Source of the DNA: a virus
Strand: one strand, 5' to 3'
DNA: 64,000 bases
Virus record (IMG/VR): IMGVR_UViG_3300024344_003321
Location: 33,425-97,424 of that record
The translations under genes and the position numbers were made by a program. Below are positions 2,836-35,225 of the stretch, piece by piece. Position 1 is the first letter of the stretch; every line of letters starts with the position of its first letter. The notes beneath the pieces are model-generated. The model saw only the letters and a program-made list of their open reading frames with translations, had not been told where the DNA came from and searched no databases.

Positions 2836-3384
2836 ATGCAGTATATAACACGCTCCGGTACATTTGATTCTGGACATCGAGTAATGAATGAGGCAATGAA
2901 ATGTTTTAATCTACATGGTCACACTTATTTGTATGATTTGACTTTCTCATTCAATTCTATGAAGGATATAGGTTATCAGATAGATTTCAAGGAAATTAAA
3001 AGAGTAGCATGTCAATGGATAGATGATAAATTAGACCACGGGTTCATAGCTAACTCAAAAGATGTAAATTATATCGAAGTGGCTCTAAAAGAAGGTAGTA
3101 AAGTGTGGGAGATGTCATTAGAAGGAATTGGTAAGTATTGCAATCCATCTGCTGAAAATGTAGTTAAAGAAATATTTTTAGCTATGGAAATTCTATTTGA
3201 AGGATATGATGATTTAAATATCTATGAAATTAAATTAAATGAAACACCCAAATGTTATACTATTTGTAATTCAGAATCTATAAGCGATAGTGATAGAAGT
3301 AATTTTAAAAATGTTAGGTACAAGGAAATAAAACAATATGCAGATGATAAGGGGATTGTAGAATACGATGACAGACTACAATAA
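2836..3384 (+). CDS. queD: 6-carboxy-5,6,7,8-tetrahydropterin synthase
   Basis: FDSGHRV...CFNLHGHTY (CxxxHGH), IDF, LDH, NPSAEN and ETP motifs; adjacent to queE and folE. Confidence 0.92.
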   Translation: MQYITRSGTFDSGHRVMNEAMKCFNLHGHTYLYDLTFSFNSMKDIGYQIDFKEIKRVACQWIDDKLDHGFIANSKDVNYIEVALKEGSKVWEMSLEGIGKYCNPSAENVVKEIFLAMEILFEGYDDLNIYEIKLNETPKCYTICNSESISDSDRSNFKNVRYKEIKQYADDKGIVEYDDRLQ

Positions 3385-4120
3385 AAATCAACCATTAGGA
3401 GAAACATACGCTTGTTTACAGGGTGAGGGTAAATATATGGGTATTCCTCATATTTTGATACGAGTCACTGGATGTCGGCTAAGATGTCAATTTTCAGATT
3501 CGTTTTGTGATACACCGTACGCTTCGTGGACACCTGAAAAAGGTAAATATACTTTAAATGATGTTGTTGAATTTTATGAAAATAATAAACATATAAGCCA
3601 CACCATGATAACGGGGGGCGGGCCAACATTACACGCTGAATTGTTAAAAGAGTTATGCATTATAGGTAAGACATATAACCATACAATTACAATAGAAACA
3701 GAAGGTTCGGAGTTTGTTCAAACTGTGGCTGATTGTATTTCACTATCACCGAAATTAAGTAATTCAACACCACAGCCGGGTTCTTGGATGGAATATGCCA
3801 ATAGAGCAGTCACTAAAAAGGATAAACAGCAACATGAAAAGTGGAGATGTAATTATAAAGCTATGAAACAATTAATTACAAAACATCCAGATTATCAGTT
3901 AAAACCTGTTATATCAAATGAAAAAGATTTAGATGAAGTAAAAGAGTTACAACATATATTAGATATACCGAACAATAAAGTTTGGTTAATGCCTGAGGGT
4001 TTGGTAGAAGAACAATTAAATGAACGAAGGAGATGGTTGATGGAATTGTGTACACAAAATGGATACAATTATACAGATAGATTACACATAATAGCTTATG
4101 GAGATACACGCGGGGTATGA
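3368..4120 (+). CDS. queE: 7-carboxy-7-deazaguanine synthase (radical SAM)
   Basis: [14 protein letters not shown]...CDT, ITGGGP, IETEG, SLSPK, LMPEG, RLHI motifs. Confidence 0.92.
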
Positions 4121-4758
4121 AAATATTACAAAAATTAGGGTATGCCAATGGTAATATACCATTGACAGGTGAAGAAAAACAAGAAATGATTAGAGAAGCA
4201 GCTGAACACTATGGTCGGTATATGAATGCTTTACGAATCGATTGGAGAAACGACCCAAATTCATCTGATACTCCTATGAGAGTTGCGAAGGCCTTTGTTA
4301 ATGATTTGGCTGAGGGTTGTTATAACGAAGAACCTAAGGTAACAGCATTCGATAATTTAGATAAATATGATGGTATGGTATTTCAAGGTAACATTACAGT
4401 AAATTCATTTTGTTCACATCATCATTTACCGTTTGTAGGTGTAGCTCATGTAGCTTATATTCCAAGTATTGATGGTAAAATAATTGGGTTAAGTAAATTA
4501 AATAGAATTGTTGAACATTATGCAAGACGACCTCAAGTACAGGAAAATTTGACAATGCAAATTCATAACCACATCGATTCTGTATGTGATGGTAATTTAG
4601 GTGTAGCAGTGATGGTATCAGCCAATCACATGTGTGCTTGCGTTCGTGGTGTTAGACATGATGCTACAATGAAAACATCTAAATTGAGTAAGGAGTTTTT
4701 AAACGGTGAGAGCAGGTCAAGCTCAGAATTTTATAGTTTTATTAACGGATTAAAATAG
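4117..4758 (+). CDS. folE: GTP cyclohydrolase I
   Basis: [38 protein letters not shown]. Confidence 0.95.
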
Positions 4759-4766
4759 GATAATAT

Positions 4767-6110
4767 ATGATAGATTTACCATTACCTGAAGGGGTAAAAA
4801 TAAAAGATTGGTACCCTGTGTTTGGTAACAAAACTGTTAGGTGTAAGAAATTTAATAGGAGGACATGTTGGGAAAAATCAGATTTTCAAAAATGGTTGGT
4901 AGCATTAGGTAGGGGGCATGTTATAAACCCATTGATTTATGTTCATATTGATAGTTGTGTAAATTCTTGTTTAAGAGAAGGTAAACTTGATGATGTAAAA
5001 TATTTTGAGGATTATAAAAAACAAGGTTATGATTATATTACCCTCGAAGGTGGTAATAGGCATGATTCTACTGAGAAAATATATGAGGTAACTCCTGAAT
5101 TCCATAATAAAAGAATTAATATAGCATTAGTTGATGGTATAGACAGAGAAGAAATGCACGAGCTTTATTTGAATTTAGCAAGTGGTAAATCTCCAAATGA
5201 CCAAGAAAGACGAACTGGTATATATGGGGTAGTATCTGATGTTGTGCGAAAAGTATCTGAGCGATTAATCTCCATGTGGGATAAAGTTAATGGGATAACA
5301 CGACCAAGAATGAAGGATGATGAAATGGTGGCAATGATAATGAATTATGTTACTAATAATAGTTTCGGGACACACCCGCTTACAGGAAAAACTCGTACAG
5401 AAACCCTTGATTCTTTATATGAAACAAATGAATATAATTCTAAATTATTTAATTATGTTACTGAAAGTCTAAAAGCTTTTTGGGAGAGGGTGCGGGATGA
5501 CGAAATTGTCACTAAAAAACAACCAAAAGTAGTAATTTATTTATTAACGATATTATTTTCTCATTTTAAAAATAAATATAAAATAGTTAATGAGAAAAAA
5601 TTTATTAAAGAATTTTTTGATTATTTTAATGATATATATAATTTTGATTATAAGGAGGGTACAACAGAAACACGGGTTAGGTTAAAATTAAGTGGGACAC
5701 ATTATACATATAAGAATTTATTAGGTAATATGTTAAAAAACTTAGGTGTACTTAATGAGGTGGAATATTTAGTTAGGTCAGAACTTATACCAAAATTAGA
5801 AACTGCTAGTGTTATTAAACCAATTAATATGGAAGAATTTACATTTAAACACCGTAAAGAATATATAGGATTGCATAAATTTGACAAGCATGGTAATATA
5901 TATGTCAAAGTTAGAACTAATAATCCAAAGTTAGATTGGTTTCCTGGGCAACCAGAGTTTACAGATATTAGTTTAACGGAATCATTTTCAAATAAATATG
6001 AATTAGACCATATTATTCCTAAATCAAAAAATGGGCCTACTTCAATAGAAAATGCAGAATTAACATCTAAAGAGTATAACAGAAAAAAATATAATATAGA
6101 GGTAAAATGA
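4767..6110 (+). CDS. DUF262/ParB-like plus C-terminal HNH nuclease (GmrSD-like architecture)
   Basis: N-terminal FNRRTCW...LGRG..INPL, EGGNR (DGQQR-like), YLNLASG; C-terminal ELDHIIPKSKNG..SIENA...YNRKK HNH. Confidence 0.65.
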   Translation: MIDLPLPEGVKIKDWYPVFGNKTVRCKKFNRRTCWEKSDFQKWLVALGRGHVINPLIYVHIDSCVNSCLREGKLDDVKYFEDYKKQGYDYITLEGGNRHDSTEKIYEVTPEFHNKRINIALVDGIDREEMHELYLNLASGKSPNDQERRTGIYGVVSDVVRKVSERLISMWDKVNGITRPRMKDDEMVAMIMNYVTNNSFGTHPLTGKTRTETLDSLYETNEYNSKLFNYVTESLKAFWERVRDDEIVTKKQPKVVIYLLTILFSHFKNKYKIVNEKKFIKEFFDYFNDIYNFDYKEGTTETRVRLKLSGTHYTYKNLLGNMLKNLGVLNEVEYLVRSELIPKLETASVIKPINMEEFTFKHRKEYIGLHKFDKHGNIYVKVRTNNPKLDWFPGQPEFTDISLTESFSNKYELDHIIPKSKNGPTSIENAELTSKEYNRKKYNIEVK

Positions 6111-6454
6111 AAACAAACATAATAGTTACATTACAAGTTGAGGGAGTACATAATTGGCCAAACGCTAAGAATGTATTTCCAGAAGTGGCTTTTTTATCGA
6201 GAGCACATAGGCATATATTTCATATAACAGCTAAAAAAAGAGTAAATCACGATGATAGGGATGTTGAATTTATCATGTTCAAACGGGATATATTAGATTA
6301 TATGAAAAATAAATATTGGAGAGAGGTCATACGAGCTTATGACTTTAAATCAAAAAGTTGTGAAATGATAGCTAAAGAAATAGTCAATCGATTTAATTTA
6401 GAATATTGCTCAGTATTTGAAGATAACGAAAATGGAGCTGAGGTCTATGTCTAA
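6107..6454 (+). CDS. dpdL: QueD-like T-fold protein, DpdL-type (predicted CDG decarboxylase)
   Basis: LSRAHRHIF (LxxxHRHxF in place of QueD CxxxHGH), DRDVEF, SCEMIA, EDNENG; second QueD-like gene in a dpdA cluster. Confidence 0.7.
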   Translation: MKTNIIVTLQVEGVHNWPNAKNVFPEVAFLSRAHRHIFHITAKKRVNHDDRDVEFIMFKRDILDYMKNKYWREVIRAYDFKSKSCEMIAKEIVNRFNLEYCSVFEDNENGAEVYV

Positions 6455-6854
6455 TAGAAAATATTTACCAACATTAGCTGAATTAGTGGATAGATTATCG
6501 ATTATCCAATTAAAGGAAGTTTTTATTGTAGAACATAAAGATGAATATGCAAAAGAGATAGCTGCTATTGTCCATGATATTGATGTGATATTAGATGATG
6601 AGAATGTAAAGTTAAGTGGCAAAGATGTTAGAGCTATTATAGTGTTATCGCAAATGAATTTACATATATGGCATAATGAAACACAATATCGTGCAGGAAC
6701 AGGTGATGGGAATCTCGGATTAACACATGGACTAAATGGTATCAGAAATACTGCAAAGAATATAATACAGGATAATATTGGTGGTAGGAAAGATTATAAA
6801 ATTGATTGTATTGCTGCAGAATTTAAAGATTGGGAGATAAGCTGGAGTGAGTAA
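6447..6854 (+). CDS. Helical protein of unknown function (DUF4254/DUF6165-like)
   Basis: TLAELVDRLSIIQLK...NLHIWHNE; start moved to ATG 6447, overlapping the previous stop. Confidence 0.5.
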   Translation: MSNRKYLPTLAELVDRLSIIQLKEVFIVEHKDEYAKEIAAIVHDIDVILDDENVKLSGKDVRAIIVLSQMNLHIWHNETQYRAGTGDGNLGLTHGLNGIRNTAKNIIQDNIGGRKDYKIDCIAAEFKDWEISWSE

Positions 6855-7593
6855 AGTTTTAGTTATAGGTGACAGCTGTAGAGATATTTTTATATATGGG
6901 GATATAGAAAGAGTTTCACCTGAAGCTCCAATTCCTGTATTTAAACCAACGCATGAATCTGAAAATGATGGTATGTCGGCAAATGTAGTTAAGAACTTAG
7001 AGGCATTAGGGTGTACAGCTGAGATATTGACAAATGAAAACGATATAAAAAAGATTAGGTATGTCCATACAGCATCAAATCAAATGGTTCTCCGAGTTGA
7101 TGAACATGATTATTGCAGAAGGATACATGAACAAGAGCTTAAGTATGTCAATGATTGGGCTGATACTTTTGATGCAATCATAATATCAGATTATTGTAAA
7201 GGGTTTTTAACTGAGGATGACATAGAATTTATATGTTCTAAGTCAGATAATGTTTTCATTGATACTAAAAAATTGTTAGGTGATTGGATTATTAACGCAA
7301 AATTTATAAAAATAAATGATTTGGAGCATAAAAAAAATTATGAGCGGATACCAAATTATCCACACCTCAATGATAAATTAATTGTTACTCGTGGTGGTAA
7401 TGGATGTGATTATAAAAATACGAATTATCCAGTCCCAGAGGTATCAGTAAAAGATGTATCTGGTGCAGGTGATACATTTTTATCTGGGTTAGTATCTGAA
7501 TATATTAAAACAAAGGATATCGTCCAATCGATAAAATTTGCACAAAAATGTACAACTGCAGTAGTACAAAAACATGGAGTTTCAACTATATGA
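6847..7593 (+). CDS. HldE/RfaE-type heptose-7-phosphate kinase domain (PfkB family)
   Basis: LVIGD, RVSPEAPIPV, ANV..NL, LRVD, ISDYCKG, DVSGAGDTF. Confidence 0.85.
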   Translation: MSKVLVIGDSCRDIFIYGDIERVSPEAPIPVFKPTHESENDGMSANVVKNLEALGCTAEILTNENDIKKIRYVHTASNQMVLRVDEHDYCRRIHEQELKYVNDWADTFDAIIISDYCKGFLTEDDIEFICSKSDNVFIDTKKLLGDWIINAKFIKINDLEHKKNYERIPNYPHLNDKLIVTRGGNGCDYKNTNYPVPEVSVKDVSGAGDTFLSGLVSEYIKTKDIVQSIKFAQKCTTAVVQKHGVSTI

Positions 7594-7883
7594 TAATATA
7601 TGTGGATATTGATGGTACAATCTGTCATACTGAAAATTCGGATTATGATAATTCAAAGCCAAGATATAATCAAATTTTAAAAATAAATGAATTATATAGT
7701 GATGGACATGAAATAGTATATTGGACTGCTCGTGGGGGCACGACTGGTATAGATTGGAGTAAACATACAAAAAAACAGATAGATGAATGGGGCTGTAAAT
7801 ATACACGGATAGAAACGCAGAAAAAACCATCATTTGATTTGTTTATAGATGATAAATCAAAACGAATAGAGGAGTTAGCTTGA
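7590..7883 (+). CDS. Small HAD-family phosphatase
   Basis: YVDIDGTIC, WTARG, KP..DLFIDDK; ATG 7590 overlaps the upstream stop. Confidence 0.8.
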   Translation: MIIYVDIDGTICHTENSDYDNSKPRYNQILKINELYSDGHEIVYWTARGGTTGIDWSKHTKKQIDEWGCKYTRIETQKKPSFDLFIDDKSKRIEELA

Positions 7884-8257
7884 GTCATAAAATAAAACCA
7901 ACAGTATGTGAGGGGTGCACAGTCCCAAAAGGTTGGGGAGAAGAGCTTATCATAGAAAATAATGAAATGTATTGTGGTAAGATATTGAAATTTAAAAAAG
8001 GGTGTAAGTTTTCAATGCATTACCATCTAATTAAGGATGAAACTTGGTATGTCCAAGAAGGTGAATTTAGATATAGATGGATTGATACTGAAACTGCAGA
8101 ACTACATGGCATTAAACTTAAAGAAGGTGATGTAGTTAGACAACGAATCGGGCAACCACATCAATTGATAGCTGAAACAGATGGAACTATATTTGAAGTT
8201 TCAACACAGCATTTTGATGATGACAGCTACAGAATTTTACCGGGAGATAGTCAGTGA
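7880..8257 (+). CDS. Cupin, sugar-phosphate isomerase-like
   Basis: VPKGWGEE, SMHYHLIKDETWYV, PHQL, EVST. Confidence 0.8.
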   Translation: MSHKIKPTVCEGCTVPKGWGEELIIENNEMYCGKILKFKKGCKFSMHYHLIKDETWYVQEGEFRYRWIDTETAELHGIKLKEGDVVRQRIGQPHQLIAETDGTIFEVSTQHFDDDSYRILPGDSQ

Positions 8258-8643
8258 TGAGAATTTGGACAAACGGTTGTTTTGATGTGTTGCATAGAGG
8301 ACATATAGAATTATTTAAATATGCTAGGTCGCTGGGAGATGAATTGATAGTAGGGGTGGATACAGATAGTAAGGTCAAAAAAGATAAAGGAGTAGATAGA
8401 CCATTCAATACTTTGGCTGATAGGATGGCAGTTTTAAATTCCCTTATTTATGTGGATAAAGTGATTCCATTTGATACCACAGATGAATTAAAAGATACAA
8501 TAAAATGGCTGAAACCACATATTATGGTTATAGGTTCTGATTGGAAAGGTAAGGATGTGATTGGAAGACGGTATGCCGAAAAGGTAATATTTTTTGATAG
8601 AATTAGTGGATATTCAACAACTATGATTTTGGAGAATAAATGA
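8254..8643 (+). CDS. HldE/RfaE domain II-type sugar-1-phosphate nucleotidyltransferase
   Basis: NGCFDVLHRGH (HxGH), GVDTD..V...KG..RP, GSDW, YSTT. Confidence 0.88.
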   Translation: MMRIWTNGCFDVLHRGHIELFKYARSLGDELIVGVDTDSKVKKDKGVDRPFNTLADRMAVLNSLIYVDKVIPFDTTDELKDTIKWLKPHIMVIGSDWKGKDVIGRRYAEKVIFFDRISGYSTTMILENK

Positions 8644-9647
8644 GTAAAATAATTTATTTACCAGTTGAACATCCGGGTGGGGCAGACGATGTTAGGAATA
8701 ATAGCACATACGATACATATATAACAGATTATTTAACTCAGAATGATAAGGAATATATTAGGATATATCCAAATATTCCACACCCAACAAGTTTAAAGGC
8801 TGGAAGTTTTCTTGATGCAGAGTTTACTATTAGATTTAAGAGTGCACAACTCGCAGAAATAGCAAGATTATATCGTGATGATGTGATTGTTTCTGGTGAT
8901 ATAATATGGAGTGCTGATTTGTGGCACCCAGGTATTGAAAGTATTGCTTACATGAATTATTTTGCTAAGAAGGATGTTAAAATTAGAGGTATGTTACATG
9001 CCGGTAGCTTCACTGATACGGATTTTGTACGGGATTTAGAGAGGTGGGCTAAAAACTTTGAGGATATAGTTTTTGATATATCAGATAAAATTTATGTTGG
9101 TAGTGAATTTATTAAAAATGATGTTATTAAGAAGAGGATAGTTGACCCAAATAAAATGCAAGTTACTGGGTTCCCTCTCGATATAGATAAATTAAGTAAA
9201 TTTCATAACAATAATAAGGAAGATATTGTTTTATTTAGTGCAAGGAATGTAGATGAAAAGCAGCCTTGGTTATTTGAAGAATTATCTAAAAGATTAAAAG
9301 GTAAAGCTAAATTCATAAATACATTAGAGCATAATTTTAGTAAAGAAGAATATTATGAATTGTTATCTAAGTCAAAGATTATAGTGAGTTATGCTTTACA
9401 AGAAAATTTTGGAGTATCAGTACAAGAAGCTGCATATTTAAATTGTGTGCCTGTTCTACCTAATAGGTTAGTTTATCCAGAATTTTTTAGTAAAAAGCAT
9501 TTATATAATACTTTTGAGGAAAGTGTTTCTATGGTAGAACATATTTTAAATAATTGGAATTTTACTGATGTGCATTGGCCAATAGAACAGATTGGCGTGA
9601 GTTGTAATTCAAATAAAAATATAATGGAGGAATGGTTTAATGCGTAA
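8640..9647 (+). CDS. GT-B (GT4-like) glycosyltransferase
   Basis: LHAGSF, FSARNVDEKQP, QENFGVSVQEA..CVPVLP; overlaps the dpdA start. Confidence 0.8.
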   Translation: MSKIIYLPVEHPGGADDVRNNSTYDTYITDYLTQNDKEYIRIYPNIPHPTSLKAGSFLDAEFTIRFKSAQLAEIARLYRDDVIVSGDIIWSADLWHPGIESIAYMNYFAKKDVKIRGMLHAGSFTDTDFVRDLERWAKNFEDIVFDISDKIYVGSEFIKNDVIKKRIVDPNKMQVTGFPLDIDKLSKFHNNNKEDIVLFSARNVDEKQPWLFEELSKRLKGKAKFINTLEHNFSKEEYYELLSKSKIIVSYALQENFGVSVQEAAYLNCVPVLPNRLVYPEFFSKKHLYNTFEESVSMVEHILNNWNFTDVHWPIEQIGVSCNSNKNIMEEWFNA

Positions 9648-10839
9648 ATTTATTTATTTCCCATCATTTTCTGCAGGAGAATATGGTGATAAATTAAAAA
9701 AAGATTATAAGTTTAAAAATGGGCACTCGTGCCGATTTTATTCGGATGATTTTCCTGAACAATATAGACATAATCAAGTTTTAATAACAGCGGGAGCTCA
9801 TTTTAAAACTGATGGTTATCGTAATTTGTTAGGACTATCTAAGGATAATTTAGTGATGGGTGACTCTGGTGGATATCAAATAGCATCTGGTGCTATGAAG
9901 TGGGATATAAAACATAGAGATAGAATTTTTAAATGGTTAGAAGAAAATGCTGATGTTGCTATGAATTTAGATATTCCACCAAGATTGAAATATCAAGGTA
10001 AATATAGAGAATGTTTAGATATTAGCATTGATAATTTTAAATATTTTGATAAACATCAGGATGGTAGCACTAAATTTCTAAATGTAGTACAGGGTGATGA
10101 TGATGTTACATACCAGAATTGGTATGACCAAGTAAAAGATTTTGAATTTTCTGGTTGGGGTGTAGGTGGTGCCGGTGGGAGTATGTATCGGTTCATGTCA
10201 GGTGTTTTAGCATTAATAAATGGTAAAGAACACCTAAAACCTAATAATGAATATTTTCATATTTTGGGAACATCGAAGATTAGAGATTTTTTAATGTTAA
10301 TACAATTGCAGAAGTCACTTGAAGAGGTTGGGAGTAAAGTAACTGTTACTACGGATAGTTCGTCACCAGATAGAGCTGTAGTATTTGGGACATTCTATAC
10401 TAATTTTAGTATTAAGCGGGGTACATTTGAGTCGGTTAATTTTCCCAATGCTAAGCATCAAGGGGATATAATTGATGATTTTTTAACACTTGAAAATATG
10501 AATTGGCCAAACTTGACTAAATTTGATGATAATTTATCAAAATTTGTAGGTTGGAAAGACACAGCAGAATGGAATTCTGATTGTACAATTGGTATGAGAT
10601 TACATAATTTTTTTGTATTCAAGGATGCAATACAGCAGATAACTGATTATGTATATGGTCACAATTATATTTTAGAACAAGTTGTGGATAAAGAAGTATA
10701 TACTGTTTTAATGTCAATTGATGAAATGGTCAAAAGTGATGACCCGAAGCGTGTATTTGAGAAATATAAACCATTGTATTCTAAATTTAGTAATATGAAA
10801 AAAACAATAATAAATAACAGTGCGGGGTTTTGGGAATGA
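9640..10839 (+). CDS. dpdA: DNA-guanine transglycosylase (TGT fold)
   Basis: GDSGGYQI, MNLDIPP, NVVQG, GVGG, HILG, TTDSSS motifs; located in a folE/queD/queE cluster. Confidence 0.85.
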   Translation: MRKFIYFPSFSAGEYGDKLKKDYKFKNGHSCRFYSDDFPEQYRHNQVLITAGAHFKTDGYRNLLGLSKDNLVMGDSGGYQIASGAMKWDIKHRDRIFKWLEENADVAMNLDIPPRLKYQGKYRECLDISIDNFKYFDKHQDGSTKFLNVVQGDDDVTYQNWYDQVKDFEFSGWGVGGAGGSMYRFMSGVLALINGKEHLKPNNEYFHILGTSKIRDFLMLIQLQKSLEEVGSKVTVTTDSSSPDRAVVFGTFYTNFSIKRGTFESVNFPNAKHQGDIIDDFLTLENMNWPNLTKFDDNLSKFVGWKDTAEWNSDCTIGMRLHNFFVFKDAIQQITDYVYGHNYILEQVVDKEVYTVLMSIDEMVKSDDPKRVFEKYKPLYSKFSNMKKTIINNSAGFWE

Positions 10840-18166: not shown

Positions 18167-19558
18167 ATGGGAAAACAGATGAATAAAAAGAAAAAAATAC
18201 TATTTTTATCGGATGATATGCGAATGTTTAGTGGTGTTGCAGTCGTAAGTAAAGAATTGATTTTAGGGACAGTAGATACATTTGATTGGGTTCAAGTTGG
18301 GGCTGCAATAAAACATCCGGAAGAAAATAAAAAAATAGATATGTCGGATGTCATACGGGATATAACAGGTGTTCGAGATGCATCAGTAATGATTTATCCA
18401 ACAAGTGGTTATGGTAACCCAAATATGTTGCGTGAATTAATAAAAATAGAACAACCTGATGCTATTTTACACTTTACAGACCCTAGGTTTTGGATATGGT
18501 TATATGAAATGGAACATGAAGTTAGAACCAACATTCCTATATTTTATTATAATATATGGGACGATTTGCCAGACCCACATTATAATAGAGATTATTACAG
18601 GAGTTCTGATTTATTGATGTCAATATCAAAACAAACTTATGGTATTAATAAGCGAGTATTATCTGAGTATGGTTATAAAGATTGGCAACTTAAATATGTA
18701 CCACATGGTATCGACCATAAAAAATTTAATATAGTTGATAAAAATGACACAAAATTTAAAAAATTCCAAAATAAATTTGGGATAGATAAATACAAGTTTA
18801 AAGTATTATACTTGAATAGAAATATAAGACGAAAAAATCCAGGTGATGTGATTTTAGCGTATAAACACTTTATCGATTCATTACCAAAGGAAAAACGGGA
18901 TGAATGTGTTTTAATGTTTCACACTAACCCCGTTGATGACAATGGGACTGATTTAAAGGCAGTGCATACGGCATTAGCTAAGGACTGTAATGTTATTTTT
19001 ACTATGGATTATGACGGTACGGCATTCGATGACCAACAGATGAATTTTATATATAACTCGGCTGATGTGTATATAAATTTAGCATCAAATGAAGGGTTTG
19101 GATTAGGTTCGGCCGAATCATTGATGACAGGAACACCAATTGTTGTAAATGTTACAGGTGGGTTACAAGACCAATGTGGGTTCAAGGATGATAGTGGAAA
19201 TTATCTTACAGAAGATGATTATATATCATTGGGTTCAAATCATAGAGGCCAATATAAAGAACACGGTGAATGGGTAAAACCTGTGTTTCCAAGTAATATA
19301 AGTTTACAAGGGTCACCACTAACACCTTACATATTTGACGATAGAGCAAGTTATGAAGATGCTGGTGATGCATTGAAATACTGGTACGATGTTGGGTCAG
19401 ATAAACGAGGTCAATATGGTAAGTTGGGCCGTGAATATGTGTTGGATAATAGAATAGGTATGTCTGCAGAAAATATGTGTGGTAGGTTAGTTGAATCGAT
19501 AGAGCATTTATTTGAAAATTGGGTACCAAAAGATAAATTTATTTTGGAGGTTGTATGA
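18167..19558 (+). CDS. Glycosyltransferase, GT4-like
   Basis: VPHGID, NRNIRRK, SNEGFGLG..ESL..GTP. Confidence 0.9.
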   Translation: MGKQMNKKKKILFLSDDMRMFSGVAVVSKELILGTVDTFDWVQVGAAIKHPEENKKIDMSDVIRDITGVRDASVMIYPTSGYGNPNMLRELIKIEQPDAILHFTDPRFWIWLYEMEHEVRTNIPIFYYNIWDDLPDPHYNRDYYRSSDLLMSISKQTYGINKRVLSEYGYKDWQLKYVPHGIDHKKFNIVDKNDTKFKKFQNKFGIDKYKFKVLYLNRNIRRKNPGDVILAYKHFIDSLPKEKRDECVLMFHTNPVDDNGTDLKAVHTALAKDCNVIFTMDYDGTAFDDQQMNFIYNSADVYINLASNEGFGLGSAESLMTGTPIVVNVTGGLQDQCGFKDDSGNYLTEDDYISLGSNHRGQYKEHGEWVKPVFPSNISLQGSPLTPYIFDDRASYEDAGDALKYWYDVGSDKRGQYGKLGREYVLDNRIGMSAENMCGRLVESIEHLFENWVPKDKFILEVV

Positions 19559-20910
19559 TAAAAAAACAATTACTTTTATGTGCTCCAGTATCAACTAGGA
19601 GTGGTTATGGTAGTCATTCACGCGATGTATTTCATGCATTACATTTAGTGGATAAATATGATATTAAAATATTAGATGTACCGTGGGGCGACTGTCCACG
19701 CAATGCACTCGATGTTAACAATGAGAATGACAAATTGGTAATTGACAATATTATGGTAGAACCTGTTTTAAAAAGTCAACCAGATATTTATATTGATTTA
19801 AGAATACCAAATGAATTTCAAACTTATGGTAAGATAAATATCGGGTTTACTGCTGGGATAGAAACAAACGCAGTATCAGTTAAATGGATTGATGGGTGCA
19901 ATAAAATGGATTTGAATATTGTACCATCTGAGCATTCAAGGAGGTCATTTATGGATACTAAATTTGATAAAATGGAAGAACATCAAGGTCAAGGTAGTGT
20001 AAAAGTAGGTGAAATATCATTGGAAAAACCAATGGAAGTTGTATTTGAAGGTGTACATGATGACATATATAAAAAAATTAATGTAAGTGACATTGATAAA
20101 AATATTTTAGATAAAATAAATAATACGGTTAAAGAAGATTTTGCATTTTTATTCGTAGGGCAATGGGTCAAAGGTAATTATGGTGAGGATAGAAAGGATA
20201 TTTTTAAATTGATTAAATTATTCCTTGAGTCGTTTGCTAATAAAAAGAAACGGCCTGCACTTGTATTAAAAACAAGTGGAGCTTCATTTTCAATAATGGA
20301 TTATGAACGGACCATTGAAAATATAAAAAGCGTGAAATCGAAGTTTCCAAATGATTGGGAATTACCAAATATCTATTTGATGCATGGTGAATTATCAGAT
20401 GTAGAAATGAATTGTTTATATAATCATCCAAAAATAAAATCGTTGGTGACATTTACCCATGGTGAGGGTTTTGGGAGGCCACTACTCGAAGCTTCGATGG
20501 TAGGGTTGCCAGTCATAGCTTCAGGTTGGAGTGGTCAAATGGATTTTTTAGATAGCGATAGGTCATTGTTATTGCAAGGGAAATTAGAACAGATACCGAA
20601 GTCTGCTAGATGGAAGGATATATTGATAGATGAGAGTAAATGGTTTGTGATTGATGAAAATCATGCATATGATGCGTTAATAGATATGCATCAAAATTAC
20701 TTTGAATATAAGCGAAAAGCTGATGCTTTAATGAATATAAATAGAGAAAAATATACATTGAAAAAAATGTCTATATTACTTGATTCAATTATAACTAAAG
20801 CAACAGAGGGTGTTCCATCTGAAACAAAGTTAAAATTGCCTAAATTGAAAAAATTAAAAACAAATAACGATGAGAAATCATTGAAATTACCTAAATTAAA
20901 GAGAGTGTAA
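19555..20910 (+). CDS. Glycosyltransferase, GT4-like
   Basis: SGYG, FLFVG, DRK, GEGFGRPLLEA..GLPVI. Confidence 0.9.
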   Translation: MIKKQLLLCAPVSTRSGYGSHSRDVFHALHLVDKYDIKILDVPWGDCPRNALDVNNENDKLVIDNIMVEPVLKSQPDIYIDLRIPNEFQTYGKINIGFTAGIETNAVSVKWIDGCNKMDLNIVPSEHSRRSFMDTKFDKMEEHQGQGSVKVGEISLEKPMEVVFEGVHDDIYKKINVSDIDKNILDKINNTVKEDFAFLFVGQWVKGNYGEDRKDIFKLIKLFLESFANKKKRPALVLKTSGASFSIMDYERTIENIKSVKSKFPNDWELPNIYLMHGELSDVEMNCLYNHPKIKSLVTFTHGEGFGRPLLEASMVGLPVIASGWSGQMDFLDSDRSLLLQGKLEQIPKSARWKDILIDESKWFVIDENHAYDALIDMHQNYFEYKRKADALMNINREKYTLKKMSILLDSIITKATEGVPSETKLKLPKLKKLKTNNDEKSLKLPKLKRV

Positions 20911-20912
20911 GT

Positions 20913-21371
20913 ATGGAAATAAAAATAGATTGTACATTATGTAAAAGTAAACGGAGTATATTTTTACTACCAGAGGATAAATTAAAGACAATGCAATGTC
21001 TAAGTTGTGGGTATGCAAGTTCCGATAGATACTTAGGTGAGCAGGCAGAAAATGAAGTTTATAATTCATTGACATCTGAAATGAAGAAGATGGCTATATT
21101 TGAATCCAATCGAACTTGGGTACCATCTTTATTAACTTTGCCTGGAGGTGTATTGGCTCCAATCTATGTTGAGGATGTATTGTTCTGGTCAGTTGTTCCA
21201 GCAGTAGATATTCCTGAAGATGAACAAAAAAATTACCCTGATGGAAATGGTGGTTATTATGAACGAAAATATGATAATAACAATACACAATTATTTAATA
21301 AATTCGCTGAAGCATTAAAGGAAGTTACTACCAATACAGCTTCTGAACCAAAATTAAATTTACCCGATTAA
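20913..21371 (+). CDS. Hypothetical protein with N-terminal zinc ribbon
   Basis: CTLC...CLSCGY. Confidence 0.6.
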   Translation: MEIKIDCTLCKSKRSIFLLPEDKLKTMQCLSCGYASSDRYLGEQAENEVYNSLTSEMKKMAIFESNRTWVPSLLTLPGGVLAPIYVEDVLFWSVVPAVDIPEDEQKNYPDGNGGYYERKYDNNNTQLFNKFAEALKEVTTNTASEPKLNLPD

Positions 21372-21376
21372 TACTG

Positions 21377-21973
21377 ATGGCAAATAAAAAATTAAATCAT
21401 AATCGTAGGATATTGGGTAGAGAAGGTATTGCTAAATATGATTTAGTCCCAGGTATGATTATAAATTTTAATTATTCTAAACCAAATGTGCAAGATAAAA
21501 ATCCACTCGTATTATTGTTGGGTGTGGATAATACAACTAATTCAATACATTGCATTAATTTTAATTATTTATATGAGGCCGATGTCCAACATTTATTTGA
21601 TGCAATAAGTAAGCGAGTTAATGTGCAGGTCAGTGATGTGAGTGGTCAAATGAAGTCCACGATTACTGATGGTGGTGTAGCTCATATAGATTATTCTAAT
21701 AAAGTTGATACATATAAATTATATGAACTCGTTATAAAACCTACATTGATGATTAAACCAAGGACAAAAAATTGCTATAGGACATATAAAATATCCAATA
21801 TTCGTAATTTATCGTTAATTAATTATAGATTTGATGTTATAGAGAAAAAAGCCCGTAAAGATGCTAACCTCACTAATTATGCATTAAAATCTGCAGAATT
21901 ATTTAAAGCGTTAATTGAACAGGAAATGGAAGTGCAGACGGATAATGTTCCTCCATCATATAAGGATAAATAA
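21377..21973 (+). CDS. Hypothetical protein, possibly DNA end-protector (gp2)-like
   Basis: GMIINFNY..DKNPLV..INFNYL..CYRTY pattern, weakly reminiscent of T4 gp2. Confidence 0.35.
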   Translation: MANKKLNHNRRILGREGIAKYDLVPGMIINFNYSKPNVQDKNPLVLLLGVDNTTNSIHCINFNYLYEADVQHLFDAISKRVNVQVSDVSGQMKSTITDGGVAHIDYSNKVDTYKLYELVIKPTLMIKPRTKNCYRTYKISNIRNLSLINYRFDVIEKKARKDANLTNYALKSAELFKALIEQEMEVQTDNVPPSYKDK

Positions 21974-21975
21974 AA

Positions 21976-22494
21976 ATGAAAATATCATACGCTATATTAA
22001 CACATAATGAAACACAATCCTTAATGGATTTAATTAATTTCCTTGTGGAATATAAGGATGATGAGGATGAAATTATAATACTCGATGATTATTCGGATAA
22101 TGAAGAAACGAAAAAAATATTGGACGCTACAGTTTCAGTTTATGATATTATATTTGAACAACGGCATTTATTAGGTGATTTTGCGGGTCAAAAAAATCAT
22201 TTAAAAAATATGTGTTCTGGTGATTATATTTTTAATTTAGATGCTGATGAACTCCCACATAAAAAACTTATAAAATCATTAAAACCAATATTAGAAGCAA
22301 ATCCGGCAGTTGATTTATACTGGGTACCGAGAATTAATACAGTAGAGGGTATAACACAAGAACATATACTTGCATGGCATTGGAGTATAGGACATTTAGA
22401 TAGTATGAAACATACTAAAGTATTAGACACAAATTCGGATGAATATAAATTATTGGAAAAATATAATTTAATTATTGAAGAAAAAGATGTTTAA
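21976..22494 (+). CDS. GT2 glycosyltransferase, N-terminal fragment of a split gene
   Basis: ISYAILTHNE, LDDYS, DFAGQKN, FNLDADE (DxD), VPRINTV; stops before the usual C-terminal motifs. Confidence 0.85.
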   Translation: MKISYAILTHNETQSLMDLINFLVEYKDDEDEIIILDDYSDNEETKKILDATVSVYDIIFEQRHLLGDFAGQKNHLKNMCSGDYIFNLDADELPHKKLIKSLKPILEANPAVDLYWVPRINTVEGITQEHILAWHWSIGHLDSMKHTKVLDTNSDEYKLLEKYNLIIEEKDV

Positions 22495-22537
22495 TTCTAT
22501 ATTTATATTAGGTACTAATTGTCAGGGAAGGATTTAT

Positions 22538-23353
22538 ATGAATAGACAATGGAAAAGAAATTGTCCAGAATGTAATAAAGAAATTACTTATACTCAAAAA
22601 TATAGTAGAGATGATGCTGAACAAAAAAACAGAAAATGTCAGAAATGTGGATGTGGTTGGTCTAAAGGATTAACCAAAGATACTTCACCTTCATTGATGG
22701 GAATGAGTAAAAAAGTTTCTAAAGCTATGGTAGAATATAGAAAAACGGCACCACCGTGGAATAAAGGATTGACTCGTGAAACTAATGAAATATTAGCTAA
22801 AATGGGTGACAATCATAAAGGATTTGTACATACTGAAAATACGAAAAAACTAATATCTAAAGCTTCTATTGAGCATTGGAAAGATACTGAATATAGGGAA
22901 AAAGTTATAAAAAACGCTACAATAGGAATAAGAAAAGCATATGCTGAGGGTAGAGTAAAATATCCTATAAATAGAGATACTAAACCAGAATTAGCAGTGA
23001 TGGGAGTGTTGGATGATATGGAAATAAAATATATAAAACAATATCCTATTTGGTCATCTTATCCCAGAACTGAAAAGACTGTTAGATTTTACGATTTTTA
23101 TTTAACAGATTATAATAAAATAATTGAAGTACATGGTGATTACTGGCACGCTAATCCAACTAAATATTTAGATAGAAATAATTTATCACAAATACAAAAA
23201 GAAACGGTTGTAAATGATGCAGACAAAGTTAAAAGAGCTATGGATGTTGGAAAGGAAGTTTTTGTTATTTGGGAAGAACATACAAAAGATAAAGAGGTGT
23301 TATATGAAAAAATTAGTTACATTTTACAAACCACTAATAAATTGGCCACATGA
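22538..23353 (+). mobile_element. Free-standing homing endonuclease (zinc finger + NUMOD3-like repeats + Vsr/DUF559-like nuclease)
   Basis: CPEC..CQKC, PWNKGLT, HTENTKKLIS, YDFYL...IEVHGDYWH...D..K..A...IWE; own RBS (GGAAGG) before ATG 22538. Confidence 0.82.
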
Positions 23354-23546
23354 TTATCAGGGTAGGATTTGGAAAAACAGACCAAATATCAGATGGGAAA
23401 AACCAGTCCACGAAACTTTGGTTGGTTATAAAGAGTATTCACATTTACCAGCTCAAGATGAATTTGCAATATATCACCATAAGGACATAAAACGCCAAGA
23501 ACAGCAGAATGAAAAATATTATAACATTATAAATGATAAAAATTAA
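23304..23546 (+). CDS. GT2 glycosyltransferase, C-terminal fragment of a split gene
   Basis: INWP.DYQGRI, W..PVHE, IYH.K...RQ..QN..Y complete the GT2 fold; GAGGTG Shine-Dalgarno before ATG 23304. Confidence 0.75.
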   Translation: MKKLVTFYKPLINWPHDYQGRIWKNRPNIRWEKPVHETLVGYKEYSHLPAQDEFAIYHHKDIKRQEQQNEKYYNIINDKN

Positions 23547-24558
23547 ATTATTAGAAAAAAATATACATCGGAACGAAACTACATTTAGACCATTTATTTT
23601 TGCTCAAAATTATTTAAAGGAAATAGGGATTGAGTTTACAGATGGCGATTCGTATGATTATGCATGGGTCGGTCAAGCAAGCATTATAGATAAAAAAAAA
23701 TCACTTAAGGAATCAATAGACGGTGGGTTGGAATTTATTTCAAGGATAACTGGTGATTACATGATAATTGACGGGCAGGATTCTACATCTTTAATTGGAG
23801 CTATTGATGTGTTTAGGGAATCTAATGCTAAGCTATTTCTTAAAAATTCATATCTTAAAGATTTTGATTTGTATAAAAAAGGTTGGGCAAATGGTAGAAT
23901 GTATTGGGGTATAGGTGAATATTCAGTCCCTGATATTGATATGATGAAGTCAAAAATGAAGTTATCTGGATGCAATTGGTTATCAACAATTCAACCGAAT
24001 TGGTATGATTATAAACACATAGAAAAAAAATATGATATATCTTGTATGTTTGGATTTCCAACAAAAACCAAAGTATATGAACATGAATTATGCCAAACGG
24101 ATTATTATGATAAGCATAGAAAGGAATTACTGAACATATTAGGTGATAAATATAATATTGCAAAATTAGATGGTGGTAAGCGTGTATCGCAGAATGAGTA
24201 TTATAAAAAAATGTATAGCTCAAAAATAATAATGGCACCATATGGTTATGGTGAAATGGCACCAAGAGATTTAGAATCTGCTATGTTTGGTAGTGTATTA
24301 GTAAAACCAGATTTAAGTTATATAGAAACTGTACCAAATATTTATCTTGATTCATATAGCTATATTTCCGTAACTTATGATTGGTCGAATATTATAGAAA
24401 AAATTGATATGATATTAGCTGATTATGAAAATATAAGGGAACGATTAGTTAAAAATATGAGAAATGAATTTGATAGAGCAAATAATTATGAGAATTTTGC
24501 AGTACATCTGTATAATATATTTAGTCAATTAGAGGGGGTGAGTGTTGAATATGCGTAA
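23533..24558 (+). CDS. Putative glycosyltransferase (GT-B C-terminal motif)
   Basis: YYKKMYSSKIIMAPYGYGE..RDLESAMFGSVLV. Confidence 0.65.
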   Translation: MIKIKLLEKNIHRNETTFRPFIFAQNYLKEIGIEFTDGDSYDYAWVGQASIIDKKKSLKESIDGGLEFISRITGDYMIIDGQDSTSLIGAIDVFRESNAKLFLKNSYLKDFDLYKKGWANGRMYWGIGEYSVPDIDMMKSKMKLSGCNWLSTIQPNWYDYKHIEKKYDISCMFGFPTKTKVYEHELCQTDYYDKHRKELLNILGDKYNIAKLDGGKRVSQNEYYKKMYSSKIIMAPYGYGEMAPRDLESAMFGSVLVKPDLSYIETVPNIYLDSYSYISVTYDWSNIIEKIDMILADYENIRERLVKNMRNEFDRANNYENFAVHLYNIFSQLEGVSVEYA

Positions 24559-25561
24559 ATTAATAGTATTTGGGCCATGGTGTGGTGAGTTTTGTTATGA
24601 ATTAAGTTGGTGGATTCCTGAAATTAGAAAAATAAAGAATGATAATTATTCAGATTGGGATGCAATAGCTGTTGGTTTCAATGGTCGTCAAGTTTTATAT
24701 GAGGATTTTACTATTGGTTATATATCATATCCAAAAGATGTTGATGATAAATTATTATATCCTGCTACTTACGGTGAGCATATAGCGGGTGGTGGTGATG
24801 TAGTACCAGATTTTTTAATAGATTTTGTCAACGAAAAATTAAATTCTATTAAAGATAATTATGACCATATAGAAGTATATTATCCAGGGATTTATCCAAT
24901 AACAGCAGAGCGAACTTTATCAGAGCAACCATATGGGATTTATAAACATTATACTGCATCACCAAGAATATATAATAAAATAAGAACACAACTAAATGAT
25001 TATTTTGATAATGATAGGAAAACTATTGCAATAATGGCTCGTATTCGGACACGATATGGCAATACATGTAAACTCGATTGGAACCCAACTCATTGGGAAA
25101 CATTAGTGGATATGATTATAAATAAATTGCATGTTAATGTTGTGATGATAGGTATAGCTAGGAAGCCGGATAGTAGTGCAGGCGGGGGCTTGACATTGTC
25201 AGATACAGAGGTATATGAGAAAAATAAAGATTATATTATGCCAATATCATTTAGTGGAGCTGATTCAGTTGAAGAACAGATTGCTTTATTACAATTAACA
25301 GAATGTAGTATATATGGCTCATCAGGGACAGCAGTGTTCCCATTTTTTATAAAAGATGCACCTTCATTTACTCAGCAGACTGTTGAGGAAGGATATAGAT
25401 TAAAATTTAAATGGGAAAGAGAATTAACAAATAATTTAAAAAATATCAAAGTGTTTGATAAATATAATAATTTTGATATTTATGATTCCTCACCTGAGGA
25501 GTTATTCGATGAATTTAAACGGTTTTATGAAAAAATAGATGAAGGATTATGCTATGAATAA
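24551..25561 (+). CDS. Putative glycosyltransferase (GT9-like)
   Basis: GPWCGEF.YEL N-terminus, W..THW, EQIALL...YGSSG; glycan-island context. Confidence 0.45.
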   Translation: MRKLIVFGPWCGEFCYELSWWIPEIRKIKNDNYSDWDAIAVGFNGRQVLYEDFTIGYISYPKDVDDKLLYPATYGEHIAGGGDVVPDFLIDFVNEKLNSIKDNYDHIEVYYPGIYPITAERTLSEQPYGIYKHYTASPRIYNKIRTQLNDYFDNDRKTIAIMARIRTRYGNTCKLDWNPTHWETLVDMIINKLHVNVVMIGIARKPDSSAGGGLTLSDTEVYEKNKDYIMPISFSGADSVEEQIALLQLTECSIYGSSGTAVFPFFIKDAPSFTQQTVEEGYRLKFKWERELTNNLKNIKVFDKYNNFDIYDSSPEELFDEFKRFYEKIDEGLCYE

Positions 25562-26669
25562 GTTAGATATACGCGAAAATATGTTACCCGTATTAGGCCC
25601 CCAGGGCGGGTTAGAAGAAGTATCTGCTATACAGCAGGTGATTGAAAGTGGTTGGTGGGGTAAAGGGCCAAAAGTTGCTGAATTTGAAGAAAAGTTTGCT
25701 AAAATGGTTGGACATAAATATGCTATAGCTGTTACAAGTGCATCACACGGCCAAGATTTGGTTATGAAGGCAATGGGCTGGAAAGGAATTGATGTAATCA
25801 ATCCGGCAATATCATTTATTGCAACTGCTATTATACCTCTTTGGAATGGTTTTACTTCAAATATTGTTGATGTTAAACGAGATACATTATGTATAGACCC
25901 AGAAGATGTTAGAAAATATAAAAAACCAAATAGTGAATTATTAATAGCTGTAAATCAAGCAGGAGTCCCAGCTGATTACAGAGAATTACGAAAAGTATTT
26001 GATGGGTTTATACTTGAAGATACTGCACATAGCTGCTGGACACCTGGTGCAGGACTCGGTGGTGATTGTGCTGTTTGGTCATTTCAAGCAGTTAAGACTA
26101 TGCCAATGGGGGATGGTGGCATGATTACAACAGATGATAAACAGCTCGCTGATAAATGTAGGGAGATGACTTGGTTTGGTGTTTCATCGACATGGAGTAG
26201 AAGTCAAGGTGCAAGTGGGAAGCCTGGATACGCTTGGGATTATCAAGTTGATATTCTTGGGTATAAATATTATATGATTGACATATTAGCTGCTATTGGG
26301 TTAGAGCAGATGAAGAAATTACCTAAACATTTAGAATTTAGGAGACATATACAATCAAGATATAATAAAGAATTAAACCCATTAATTGAAAGACCACCAC
26401 ATTCAGAAACGGTGCAATACTATGTAGCAAGAGTCCCATCGGAGCATAGAGATAGTTTAATTGATTATTTGGGTAATAAAAAAATACATACTTCTGTTCA
26501 TTTCAAACCATTATATAAATATGGTCCAATTGTGCATGATAGGGAATACCCAGTATGTGAAACTGAATGGACAAAATTAATATCATTACCATGCCATAAC
26601 AGAATGAAGGAAGAAGATATTGATTATGTTGTGTATTGGGTGAATAAATATTTTGAGGATAAGGTTTAA
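25554..26669 (+). CDS. DegT/DnrJ/EryC1/StrS sugar aminotransferase
   Basis: GPKVAEFE, EDTAH, SFQAVK (catalytic Lys), GDGG, SLP. Confidence 0.92.
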   Translation: MNKLDIRENMLPVLGPQGGLEEVSAIQQVIESGWWGKGPKVAEFEEKFAKMVGHKYAIAVTSASHGQDLVMKAMGWKGIDVINPAISFIATAIIPLWNGFTSNIVDVKRDTLCIDPEDVRKYKKPNSELLIAVNQAGVPADYRELRKVFDGFILEDTAHSCWTPGAGLGGDCAVWSFQAVKTMPMGDGGMITTDDKQLADKCREMTWFGVSSTWSRSQGASGKPGYAWDYQVDILGYKYYMIDILAAIGLEQMKKLPKHLEFRRHIQSRYNKELNPLIERPPHSETVQYYVARVPSEHRDSLIDYLGNKKIHTSVHFKPLYKYGPIVHDREYPVCETEWTKLISLPCHNRMKEEDIDYVVYWVNKYFEDKV

Positions 26670-26673
26670 TAAT

Positions 26674-35213: not shown

Positions 35214-35225
35214 AAGAGGTTATAT

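Follow-up and report, generated by a model that had tools for sequence, protein, structure and literature searches.

The 64-kb stretch of viral DNA analysed here (the window) forms the 3' part of an IMG/VR viral contig of 97 kb, which has a G+C content near 31% and is estimated to be about 53% complete. Downstream of its PolB gene the window carries a + strand operon of about 8 kb (2836-10839) in which the genes of a DpdL-type 7-deazaguanine pathway stand together with a GT-B glycosyltransferase (GT) and a five-gene sugar-activation cassette. Across phages the GT is tied to DpdL and to a long form of DpdA, and we tentatively propose a two-part hypermodification in which a nucleoside diphosphate (NDP)-heptose/mannose-type donor would feed the GT, which would place the sugar on a 7-deazaguanine bound for DNA; this chemistry is a prediction.

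In the proposed scheme FolE, QueD and QueE would make 7-carboxy-7-deazaguanine (CDG), DpdL would convert it to 7-deazaguanine (DG), and DpdA, which has the fold of the tRNA-guanine transglycosylases (TGT), would swap guanine in the phage DNA for the deazaguanine. The GT, as a retaining-type GT4 enzyme, would add a sugar to the deazaguanine, either to the free base before insertion or to a DG residue already in DNA, and the sugar donor would be made in situ by the inserted cassette. The virion DNA of this and many other GT-type DpdL phages may then contain glycosylated 7-deazaguanine, bearing here a cassette-made sugar of the heptose or mannose type, an outcome that we regard as quite possible without claiming that it is probable. 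The activity of the GT, its deazaguanine acceptor, the presence of the product in virion DNA, the use of the cassette product as donor and the identity of the sugar are points that we infer.

Linkage of the glycosyltransferase to DpdL and long DpdA

Homologues of the GT were found by tblastn in just 23 cultured-phage records. The family includes proteins of PA5oct, ACP17, Xanthomonas phages X1/BUDD, Burkholderia phage BCSR5, Sinorhizobium phage Phosso and Synechococcus phage BUCT-ZZ01, and in IMG/VR it comprises at least 651 clusters, essentially unnamed. In ACP17, PA5oct and Phosso the GT stands among FolE, QueD, QueE, DpdL and DpdA, adjoining the polymerase. The original prediction had placed the GT with the deazaguanine genes, and in its neighbourhoods the linkage to dpdA/dpdL is seen in essentially every locus examined; in the IMG/VR loci collected with the GT as seed, DpdL and/or DpdA lay beside it in 57/57.

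The search was also made from the other side. At least 600 IMG/VR loci were obtained with DpdL as seed, and among the best 48 with enough flank the GT lay within 5 kb in 31, the arrangement of phage phiST (a P-loop protein and a short DpdA3) was present in 7, and neither was seen in 10. In 80 DpdL-seeded loci the GT occurred with a long DpdA in 36 and with a short, phiST-type DpdA3 in 0; short DpdA3 was present without the GT in 14 and long DpdA without the GT in 2, both on contigs that break off shortly before the place where the GT would lie. These locus counts are not independent events, since related loci share labels by descent; the pattern spans at least four gene orders.

In T4-like marine relatives (L070, L072, L085) the P-loop protein and short DpdA3 replace the GT and long DpdA, and DpdL is 63-66% identical between the GT-type and phiST-type modules of T4-like marine phages. 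Closely related phages can therefore carry either module, with DpdL constant and the two pairs as alternatives, and at this level of identity DpdL most likely has the same function in both. Judged by these gene contents, the two partner pairs behave as exchangeable modules around DpdL. If the base is indeed glycosylated, the long DpdA would represent an adaptation to a bulky substrate of this kind.

By sequence the GT is recognised weakly: its Pfam Glycos_transf_1 match (21.8 bits) is below the gathering cut-off of 26.4, and a precomputed PF00534 match is present in some relatives. The AlphaFold2 model (predicted local distance difference test, pLDDT, 82) has a two-Rossmann GT-B fold nearest to GT4 members, so that the earlier call of a GT-B glycosyltransferase, below cut-off by sequence, is clear by fold. 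The top Foldseek matches are BshA (8e-11), MshA and GlgM, and by VIA sucrose-phosphate synthase (SPS; Z 24.8) and BshA (Z 24.5) are matched over 301-313 residues. The EX7E donor-site motif (E255-NFGVSVQ-E263, ENFGVSVQE) is invariant in 23 GT sequences of 52-69% identity, as are GRxxDEKQPWLF and a long N-domain motif, HAGSFTDTDFVRDxERWAKNFED. From the modelled GT4 fold and the invariant EX7E and GRxxxEKQ donor-site motifs, the protein looks catalytic. No fusion of the GT to DpdL, DpdA or the nucleotidyltransferase (NT) of the cassette was found among proteins of at least 623 aa, which is weak evidence.

The window GT is the only 1 of the 23 with a remodelled beta1-alpha1 loop; residues 9-27 hold 10 private differences, including a 4-residue insertion, where the 22 relatives are invariant. 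This loop is encoded by a G+C-rich patch (window 8664-8720) that reads HPGGADDVRNNSTYDTY, the relatives having an invariant HI-ESRYTxHMDRD, and the AlphaFold2 confidence within it is below 50. A frameshift artefact was rejected as its source, as the other frames of 8640-8759 contain no ESRYT-type sequence and the loop is 12 nt longer. The alignment is compatible with a possible change of substrate in the sole aligned member that carries its own cassette.

Several further genes accompany GT-type modules. A small phosphoribosyltransferase (PF00156) is present in most of them, once exactly between DpdL and the GT, and in L049-type loci a homologue of inosine monophosphate dehydrogenase (IMPDH)/GMP reductase lies 3' of the GT (examples of these two kinds of gene are at L022:1459-1850, L041:10000-10491, L027:3877-4266 and L049:8960-10012); one possible role for such genes would be to recycle the guanine released by DpdA into GTP, the pathway precursor. 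No phosphoribosyltransferase of this kind was found in the window's 97-kb contig. In ACP17 and many GT-type loci (L041:6594-7100, L027:6740-7282, L004:6200-6598) the genes for DpdA and DpdL flank one for a conserved protein of 130-180 aa (u168/u180), which has no counterpart in the window; a Pfam search of these proteins and of the ACP17 and L041 DpdA recognised no family. L041-type loci have around 326 nt between DpdL and the GT (L041:7675-8000) without an open reading frame of 70 aa or more.

Operon layout and the deazaguanine genes

Every gene in the window is on the + strand, the replication genes are T4-like and the phage is a marine T4-like one. The operon and its upstream neighbour are made up as follows.

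247-2778, +, family B DNA polymerase (T4 gp43-like), next to the operon on its upstream side; Pfam DNA_pol_B 6e-32, exonuclease domain 3e-21
2836-3384, +, QueD (6-carboxytetrahydropterin, CPH4, synthase; T-fold); Pfam PTPS 5e-25
3368-4120, +, QueE-like radical SAM enzyme (CDG synthase); Radical_SAM 5e-6, below cut-off
4117-4758, +, FolE, GTP cyclohydrolase I; Pfam GTP_cyclohydroI 2e-45
4767-6110, +, 447-aa protein with a C-terminal HNH nuclease domain; HNH_4 5e-7, HNH 1.6e-4
6107-6454, +, DpdL, QueD paralogue proposed as CDG decarboxylase; LxxxHRHxF signature
6447-6854, +, 135-aa protein of unknown function, with which the inserted sugar cassette opens; no family match
6847-7593, +, PfkB-family sugar-phosphate kinase, nearest to heptose-7-phosphate kinase (HldE domain I / HldA); PfkB 6e-17
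7590-7883, +, small HAD phosphatase of the AfhF / "capsule biosynthesis phosphatase" family; PDB 9iqw 8e-9
7880-8257, +, cupin, candidate sugar-phosphate isomerase or NDP-sugar epimerase; Cupin_2 1e-7
8254-8643, +, cytidylyltransferase-like sugar-phosphate NT (HldE domain II-like); CTP_transf_like 1.6e-20
8640-9647, +, GT4-like GT-B glycosyltransferase (335 aa), core partner of DpdL and long DpdA; fold, motifs, neighbourhoods
9640-10839, +, long-form DpdA (399 aa), TGT-fold DNA/base transglycosylase; fold, DSGGxQ

The junctions from the nuclease gene (4767-6110) to dpdA are 4- or 8-nt start/stop overlaps throughout, and the chain of overlaps described in the original prediction (6454/6447, 6854/6847, 7593/7590, 7883/7880, 8257/8254, 8643/8640 and 9647/9640) is present in full. 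A GGAG-like Shine-Dalgarno sequence lies upstream of most of the overlapping junctions, and non-ATG starts are used by the kinase (GTG 6847), the cupin (TTG 7880) and the NT (GTG 8254). On the 3' side dpdA is followed by a conserved unknown gene and then the clamp loader. Megablast of the operon region against phage records gave no DNA-level match. The 447-aa HNH protein, between folE and dpdL, has an N-terminal part that is DUF262-like (EGGNR) by eye only, and a 64% identical homologue is found directly before DpdL in locus L022; a possible role is attack on unmodified DNA, or it may be a homing element.

The 115-aa DpdL has LSRAHRHIF at residues 30-38, an exact instance of LxxxHRHxF, the signature that separates DpdL from QueD (CxxxHGH in QueD) (Cui, Hutinet et al. 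2023, PMC10516641). With this motif the gene at 6107-6454, previously described as DpdL-like, is a genuine DpdL. It is 37.7% identical to phiST DpdL (E 1e-16), and 19 aligned sequences, those of phiST, ACP17 and PA5oct among them, all have L30, H34, H36 and F38 (alignment A3). DpdL is encoded together with FolE, QueD, QueE and a DpdA; the QueE-like protein falls below its Pfam cut-off, and orthologues 70-80% identical to it occupy the QueE position in related loci. No QueC was found in the 97-kb contig, which covers about 53% of the genome, and FolE/QueD/QueE with DpdL and a TGT-fold DpdA therefore point to the QueC-less, DpdL-type pathway, as yields the deoxynucleoside of DG (dDG) in phiST. 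The role of DpdL as a decarboxylase of CDG to DG has been proposed, and heterologous expression yielded no dDG (PMC10516641).

DpdA (399 aa) gives weak TGT matches only at the sequence level, a PDB profile search matching TGT/QTRT1 only. Its AlphaFold2 model (pLDDT 87.5) has the (beta/alpha)8 TGT fold, and the Foldseek top 50 are all TGT, archaeosine TGT or DpdA 7ui4, the DNA preQ0 insertase (E 4.5e-9 to 3e-8), so that the TGT/DpdA assignment made earlier is clear from the fold. The invariant motif D75-S-G-G-x-Q80 corresponds in the alignment to LTDSGGFQ of QTRT1; D239 is also invariant and, by position alone, would be equivalent to the TGT nucleophile. Comparison with the 259-aa short DpdA3 of phiST (CGPG_00065), whose subfamily also has members in Campylobacter phages, gives a weak match by hhalign (probability 50%, E 1.6e-4, 148 columns), and the window protein groups with the long form of ACP17/PA5oct. 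Prediction of a complex between GT and DpdA (alignments A1, A2) gave a score of 0.00, which, with no control runs, carries no weight for or against binding.

Origin and product of the sugar cassette

In the closest relatives of the GT (61-69% identity, L007-L026) DpdL, GT and DpdA abut, with at most one phosphoribosyltransferase between DpdL and the GT and with no cassette. It follows that this lineage received the five genes at 6447-8643 as an insertion at the DpdL/GT junction. The closest relatives of the cassette itself (58-73% identity) occur either as part of glycan islands or in phages that have no DpdL/GT. The gene order in L160 is a dehydratase like GDP-mannose 4,6-dehydratase (GMD), the 135-aa unknown (70%), NT (61%), cupin (69%), a phosphorylase-superfamily gene and the kinase (58%), and the same island has a split transketolase, a B12-radical SAM enzyme, DegT, UDP-galactopyranose mutase (GLF) and GT2; L148 has a similar arrangement. 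The kinase is located 3' of the clamp loader in L152-L158 and L161, and one complete 216-kb contig has the kinase and neither GT nor DpdL. Cyanomyoviruses (P-SSM2, S-SM2, S-CAM1 and others) have the set of kinase, HAD, cupin and NT at 40-56% identity in lipopolysaccharide (LPS)-like islands, with no dpdA. Judged by where its relatives lie, the cassette is a mobile NDP-sugar supply module, brought in here from a glycan island and not ancestral to the deazaguanine system.

The original prediction had allowed that it would suffer if relatives placed the heptose genes with the glycan island, and this is in part what is seen, the relatives being in glycan islands or in phages lacking DpdL/GT. Of its proposal that a cassette-made NDP-sugar is transferred by the GT to a deazaguanine, the tie of the GT to dpdL/dpdA stands; the cassette as an ancestral deazaguanine component does not, as it is a lineage-specific insertion. 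Similarly, the "helical unknown" of that account (135 aa, 6447-6854) keeps its position in the chain but belongs to the sugar cassette and not to the deazaguanine genes, since it travels with cupin, NT and kinase elsewhere; its homologues beside these genes in the L160 and L148 glycan islands are 70-73% identical. No match to this protein was found in Pfam, NCBIfam or PHROGs, nor by tblastn in cultured phages.

The kinase and NT resemble the two domains of HldE, as was first thought, yet orthology does not follow, as both score far below the NCBIfam HldE equivalog cut-offs. The kinase matches rfaE_dom_I at 4.5e-37 (127.8 bits against a cut-off of 345) and PDB 4e84 HldA at 6e-13, and the NT matches rfaE_dom_II at 5.6e-34 (117 bits against 181.5), PDB 5x9q HldC at 6e-18 and TagD at 1.5e-17. 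The earlier HAD phosphatase and cupin calls hold as resemblances, the former weak and the latter at Cupin_2 1e-7. The second PDB match of the HAD protein is 1xpj (8e-6), which is also the match given for DLP3 gp81 and RB69 gp51 (PMC13326640); EcbF-BcbF and BT0820 are weak. HAD homologues occur in 381 phage records, and in mobillu one (36.7% identity) lies in a PolB-proximal arabinosyl-hydroxycytosine cluster (arabinose-5-P isomerase (API), NT/kinase, HAD, ThyA). The cupin has weak matches to MannoseP_isomer and WbuC (5e-4 each) and homologues of 45-52% identity in the cyanophage cassette. No match to a SIS-type isomerase GmhA (SIS_2) was found in the contig, and the cupin is therefore the candidate isomerase.

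On this assignment the cupin would convert a ketose-phosphate to a manno-configured aldose-phosphate, the PfkB kinase would phosphorylate the anomeric position to give a bisphosphate, the AfhF-type HAD phosphatase would remove the distal phosphate, and the cytidylyltransferase-like NT would yield an NDP-sugar, most likely NDP-heptose or NDP-mannose. Transketolase genes beside the cassette relatives favour a C7 sugar and phosphomannose isomerase (PMI)-type cupins in other GT lineages favour mannose, so that the product can be described, from gene families only, as a probable manno-configured heptose or hexose activated as an NDP-sugar.

Among the relatives, the B12-binding radical SAM enzyme and split transketolase of L160 adjoin the cassette genes (L160:971-4253), and in S-SM2 a transketolase-like gene is immediately upstream of the kinase; these neighbours hint that such phages may make their own C7 sugar phosphate. 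The cyanophage "phosphoheptose isomerase" (T4-GC 306, phrog_1238; L002:7722-8066, P-SSM2) matches the window HAD protein and not a SIS isomerase, and the "cysteine dioxygenase / nucleotidyltransferase" beside the phrog_1238 gene is a cupin; both annotations are probably misannotations.

That the cassette feeds the GT is made plausible by other lineages, which have independently put different sugar-nucleotide genes beside the same GT. L027-type loci have a PMI-type cupin (PF01050, 5e-27) upstream of the GT and an NT downstream, L049-type loci have an NT::PMI-cupin fusion upstream, and the 17 L041-type loci have a GDP-mannose-dehydratase-like SDR downstream. Overall, a sugar-nucleotide gene is within 4 kb of the GT in 26/40 GT-seeded loci and 16/35 DpdL-seeded GT loci. 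Furthermore, the same logic of isomerase, kinase, HAD, NT and GT has been established by experiment for arabosylated 5-hydroxycytosine DNA (PMC13326640), and the cassette, GT and dpdA are translationally coupled in the window by their overlaps.

Alternatively, the GT may be part of the deazaguanine system and use a host NDP-sugar, with the cassette as glycan cargo mainly supplying the island at 18-38 kb. That island (18167-38042) starts at about 18.2 kb, 7.3 kb after dpdA, as in the separation of about 7 kb given earlier; it encodes two GT1, two GT2, two DegT aminotransferases, an SDR, an FkbM methyltransferase, a hexapeptide transferase and GMD (1e-119). No NT of its own was found for it in the 97-kb contig, where the NT at 8254-8643 is the only sugar NT found. 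The relatives fit such a role: the closest GT relatives have DpdL-GT-DpdA without sugar genes between, the cassette relatives (58-73%) sit by GMD-like, transketolase, DegT, GLF and GT2 genes, the cyanophage homologues are in LPS-like islands without dpdA, and the 216-kb contig has the kinase and no GT or DpdL. However, we consider this arrangement unlikely: the insertion is exactly at the DpdL/GT junction and translationally coupled to the GT, other lineages have independently recruited sugar-nucleotide genes to the same GT, and the window GT has its private remodelled loop. One NDP-sugar pool can serve both, so that supply of the GT and of the island are not exclusive.

Acceptor of the glycosyltransferase and comparison with known systems

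The acceptor is the weakest step of the scheme. The tie of the GT to DpdL and the long DpdA points to 7-deazaguanine, as the free base or in DNA. Glycosylation of bases in DNA by GT-B enzymes is known from T4 and RB69. A pyrimidine target was rejected, as a search of the 97-kb contig brought up neither a ThyA nor a hydroxymethylase homologue. Fold neighbours were also rejected as a guide to the acceptor; they do not discriminate, since the RB69/DLP3 DNA arabinosyltransferases give the same top structural neighbours (BshA, SPS, BGluT) as the small-molecule GTs (PMC13326640).

The DNA of PA5oct is resistant to restriction enzymes whose sites contain G, and the modification is chemically unidentified (PMC12191111). 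Expression of dpdL and dpdA of ACP17 in E. coli gave no dDG, and other enzymes are perhaps needed, according to Cui et al. (PMC10516641); the neighbouring GT is an obvious candidate for the one that was missing. The strict need for DpdL suggests that attachment may require a free C7, and possibly gives a C-glycoside. Should DG, and not CDG, be what the GT requires, the free C7 may be the feature that counts, which would account for the DpdL linkage; both points are speculation.

It is also possible, if improbable, that the GT acts on a protein (DpdA or a virion protein) or on a pterin or deazapurine metabolite that is never inserted, in the manner of the BGluT pteridine glycosides. The route to pteridine glycosides runs through FolE, a PTPS-like enzyme and the GT4 transferase BGluT; the best structural neighbours of the window GT are GT4 enzymes with small-molecule acceptors (BshA, MshA, GlgM, SPS), and the pterin glucosyltransferase BGluT itself (5zer) is matched at Z 19.8. 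Furthermore, DpdL is a PTPS/QueD paralogue whose proposed decarboxylase role was never validated. Against this, the DNA arabinosyltransferases of RB69/DLP3 share those top matches (PMC13326640), the presence of the GT strictly follows which form of DpdA is encoded, the GT gene lies in replication modules by the polymerase, and the identity of DpdL to that of phiST-type modules (63-66%) makes the same function most likely.

It is very improbable that the GT-like protein is a structural or regulatory partner of DpdA/DpdL with no transferase activity and with coincidental sugar genes nearby, as its sub-threshold Pfam score and the P-loop protein filling the same slot in phiST-type modules might suggest, because the EX7E and GRxxDEKQPWLF donor-site motifs are invariant across the family and sugar-nucleotide genes recur beside the GT in at least four architectures.

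Several points weigh against glycosylation of a DNA-destined deazaguanine by a cassette-made sugar. On the donor side, the GT does not need the cassette, since its closest relatives are without it, the closest relatives of the cassette lie in glycan islands or in phages that lack DpdL/GT, and the window's glycan island could, from its gene content, be the real client. The kinase and NT have rfaE_dom_I and rfaE_dom_II as best families, yet fail the HldE equivalog cut-offs. Retaining GT4 enzymes normally use alpha-linked donors, and HldE-type pathways make beta-linked ADP-heptose. On the acceptor side, phiST is the only DpdL phage with measured DNA and has plain dDG and no GT, no DNA chemistry exists for any GT-type phage, and DG has no obvious O- or N-nucleophile in the major groove.

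If the proposed hypermodification is nevertheless correct, it would be the first sugar-bearing purine reported in DNA, and would join the two best-studied anti-restriction chemistries in one base. To our knowledge the glycosylated DNA bases are all pyrimidines (glucosyl-hydroxymethylcytosine (hmC), arabinosyl-hydroxycytosine (hoC)/hmC and base J), and we know of no DNA deazaguanine that is glycosylated. It would also present a new substrate class to type IV restriction and DNA-glycosylase defences, and could explain the failure of dpdL and dpdA alone to yield dDG in E. coli (PMC10516641). Since the GT family is abundant and present in cultured phages, the prediction is directly testable by mass spectrometry. 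The window offers a self-contained version, with precursor, donor sugar, transferase and insertase within about 8 kb, which suits heterologous reconstitution, and its cassette also hints at the type of sugar.

The nearest known system is the DpdL/DpdA3 system of the Cellulophaga phage phiST, which shares with the window FolE, QueD and QueE without QueC, the DpdL motif, a TGT-superfamily DpdA and a place beside the replicative polymerase (PMC10516641). It differs in that the places of the 335-aa GT4 and 399-aa DpdA of the window are taken by a P-loop (AAA_18) protein of 165 aa and a DpdA3 of 259 aa; the pairs are never mixed in the 80 loci, and phiST has no sugar genes and plain dDG in its DNA. 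The phiST DpdL paper mentions no glycosyltransferase (0 occurrences of "glycosyl"; PMC10516641).

The arabinosyl-5-hydroxycytosine pathway of RB69, DLP3 and HY126 likewise has an isomerase, an anomeric kinase, the HAD protein AfhF, an NT and GT4-like GT-B transferases, and its cluster adjoins the DNA polymerase; the window HAD is homologous to the AfhF phosphatase family (PMC13326640). In contrast to the window, the pyrimidine is made at the nucleotide level by a ThyA homologue and the sugar is arabinose (PMC13326640), the isomerase is of SIS type and not a cupin, and the kinase and NT are of other families (a MurU-like NT fused with the kinase). With the ADP-heptose pathway of the LPS core (GmhA-HldE-GmhB) the window shares a kinase and NT nearest to HldE domains I and II and the same order of kinase, phosphatase and NT, and the transketolase genes beside the cassette relatives are consistent with a C7 sugar. 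The window differs in its split kinase and NT genes, a HAD protein not of GmhB type and no SIS isomerase, a slot that we infer is taken by the cupin.

In huimycin/dapiramicin biosynthesis the GT4-type HuiG glycosylates the free 7-deazaguanine base (PMC7439116; bioRxiv 10.64898/2026.04.15.718813). As in the window, FolE/QueD/QueE-type genes are accompanied by one for a GT-B enzyme of the GT4 family, and a sugar is placed on 7-deazaguanine, in the window by prediction, HuiG being likened to the window GT by its described role and GT4 class, not by sequence comparison. Huimycin is, however, an actinomycete secondary metabolite made from preQ0 (QueC is present), with no DpdA, and the product is not in nucleic acid. 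The alpha- and beta-glucosyltransferases of T4 resemble the window GT in their GT-B fold, their occurrence in T4-like phages and their modified DNA base; they are weaker structural neighbours (alpha-glucosyltransferase 1y6f, Z 16.8) than the GT4 enzymes (Z 24-25), their acceptor is the 5-hydroxymethyl group on cytosine and their donor is host UDP-glucose. No paper was found in the literature on a glycosyltransferase in a deazaguanine DNA module or on a glycosylated deazaguanine in DNA. The insertion of deazaguanines and the glycosylation of bases have each been described, but not the two together; the novelty of the window lies in a complete, translationally coupled sugar-activation cassette embedded inside a GT-DpdL-DpdA module.

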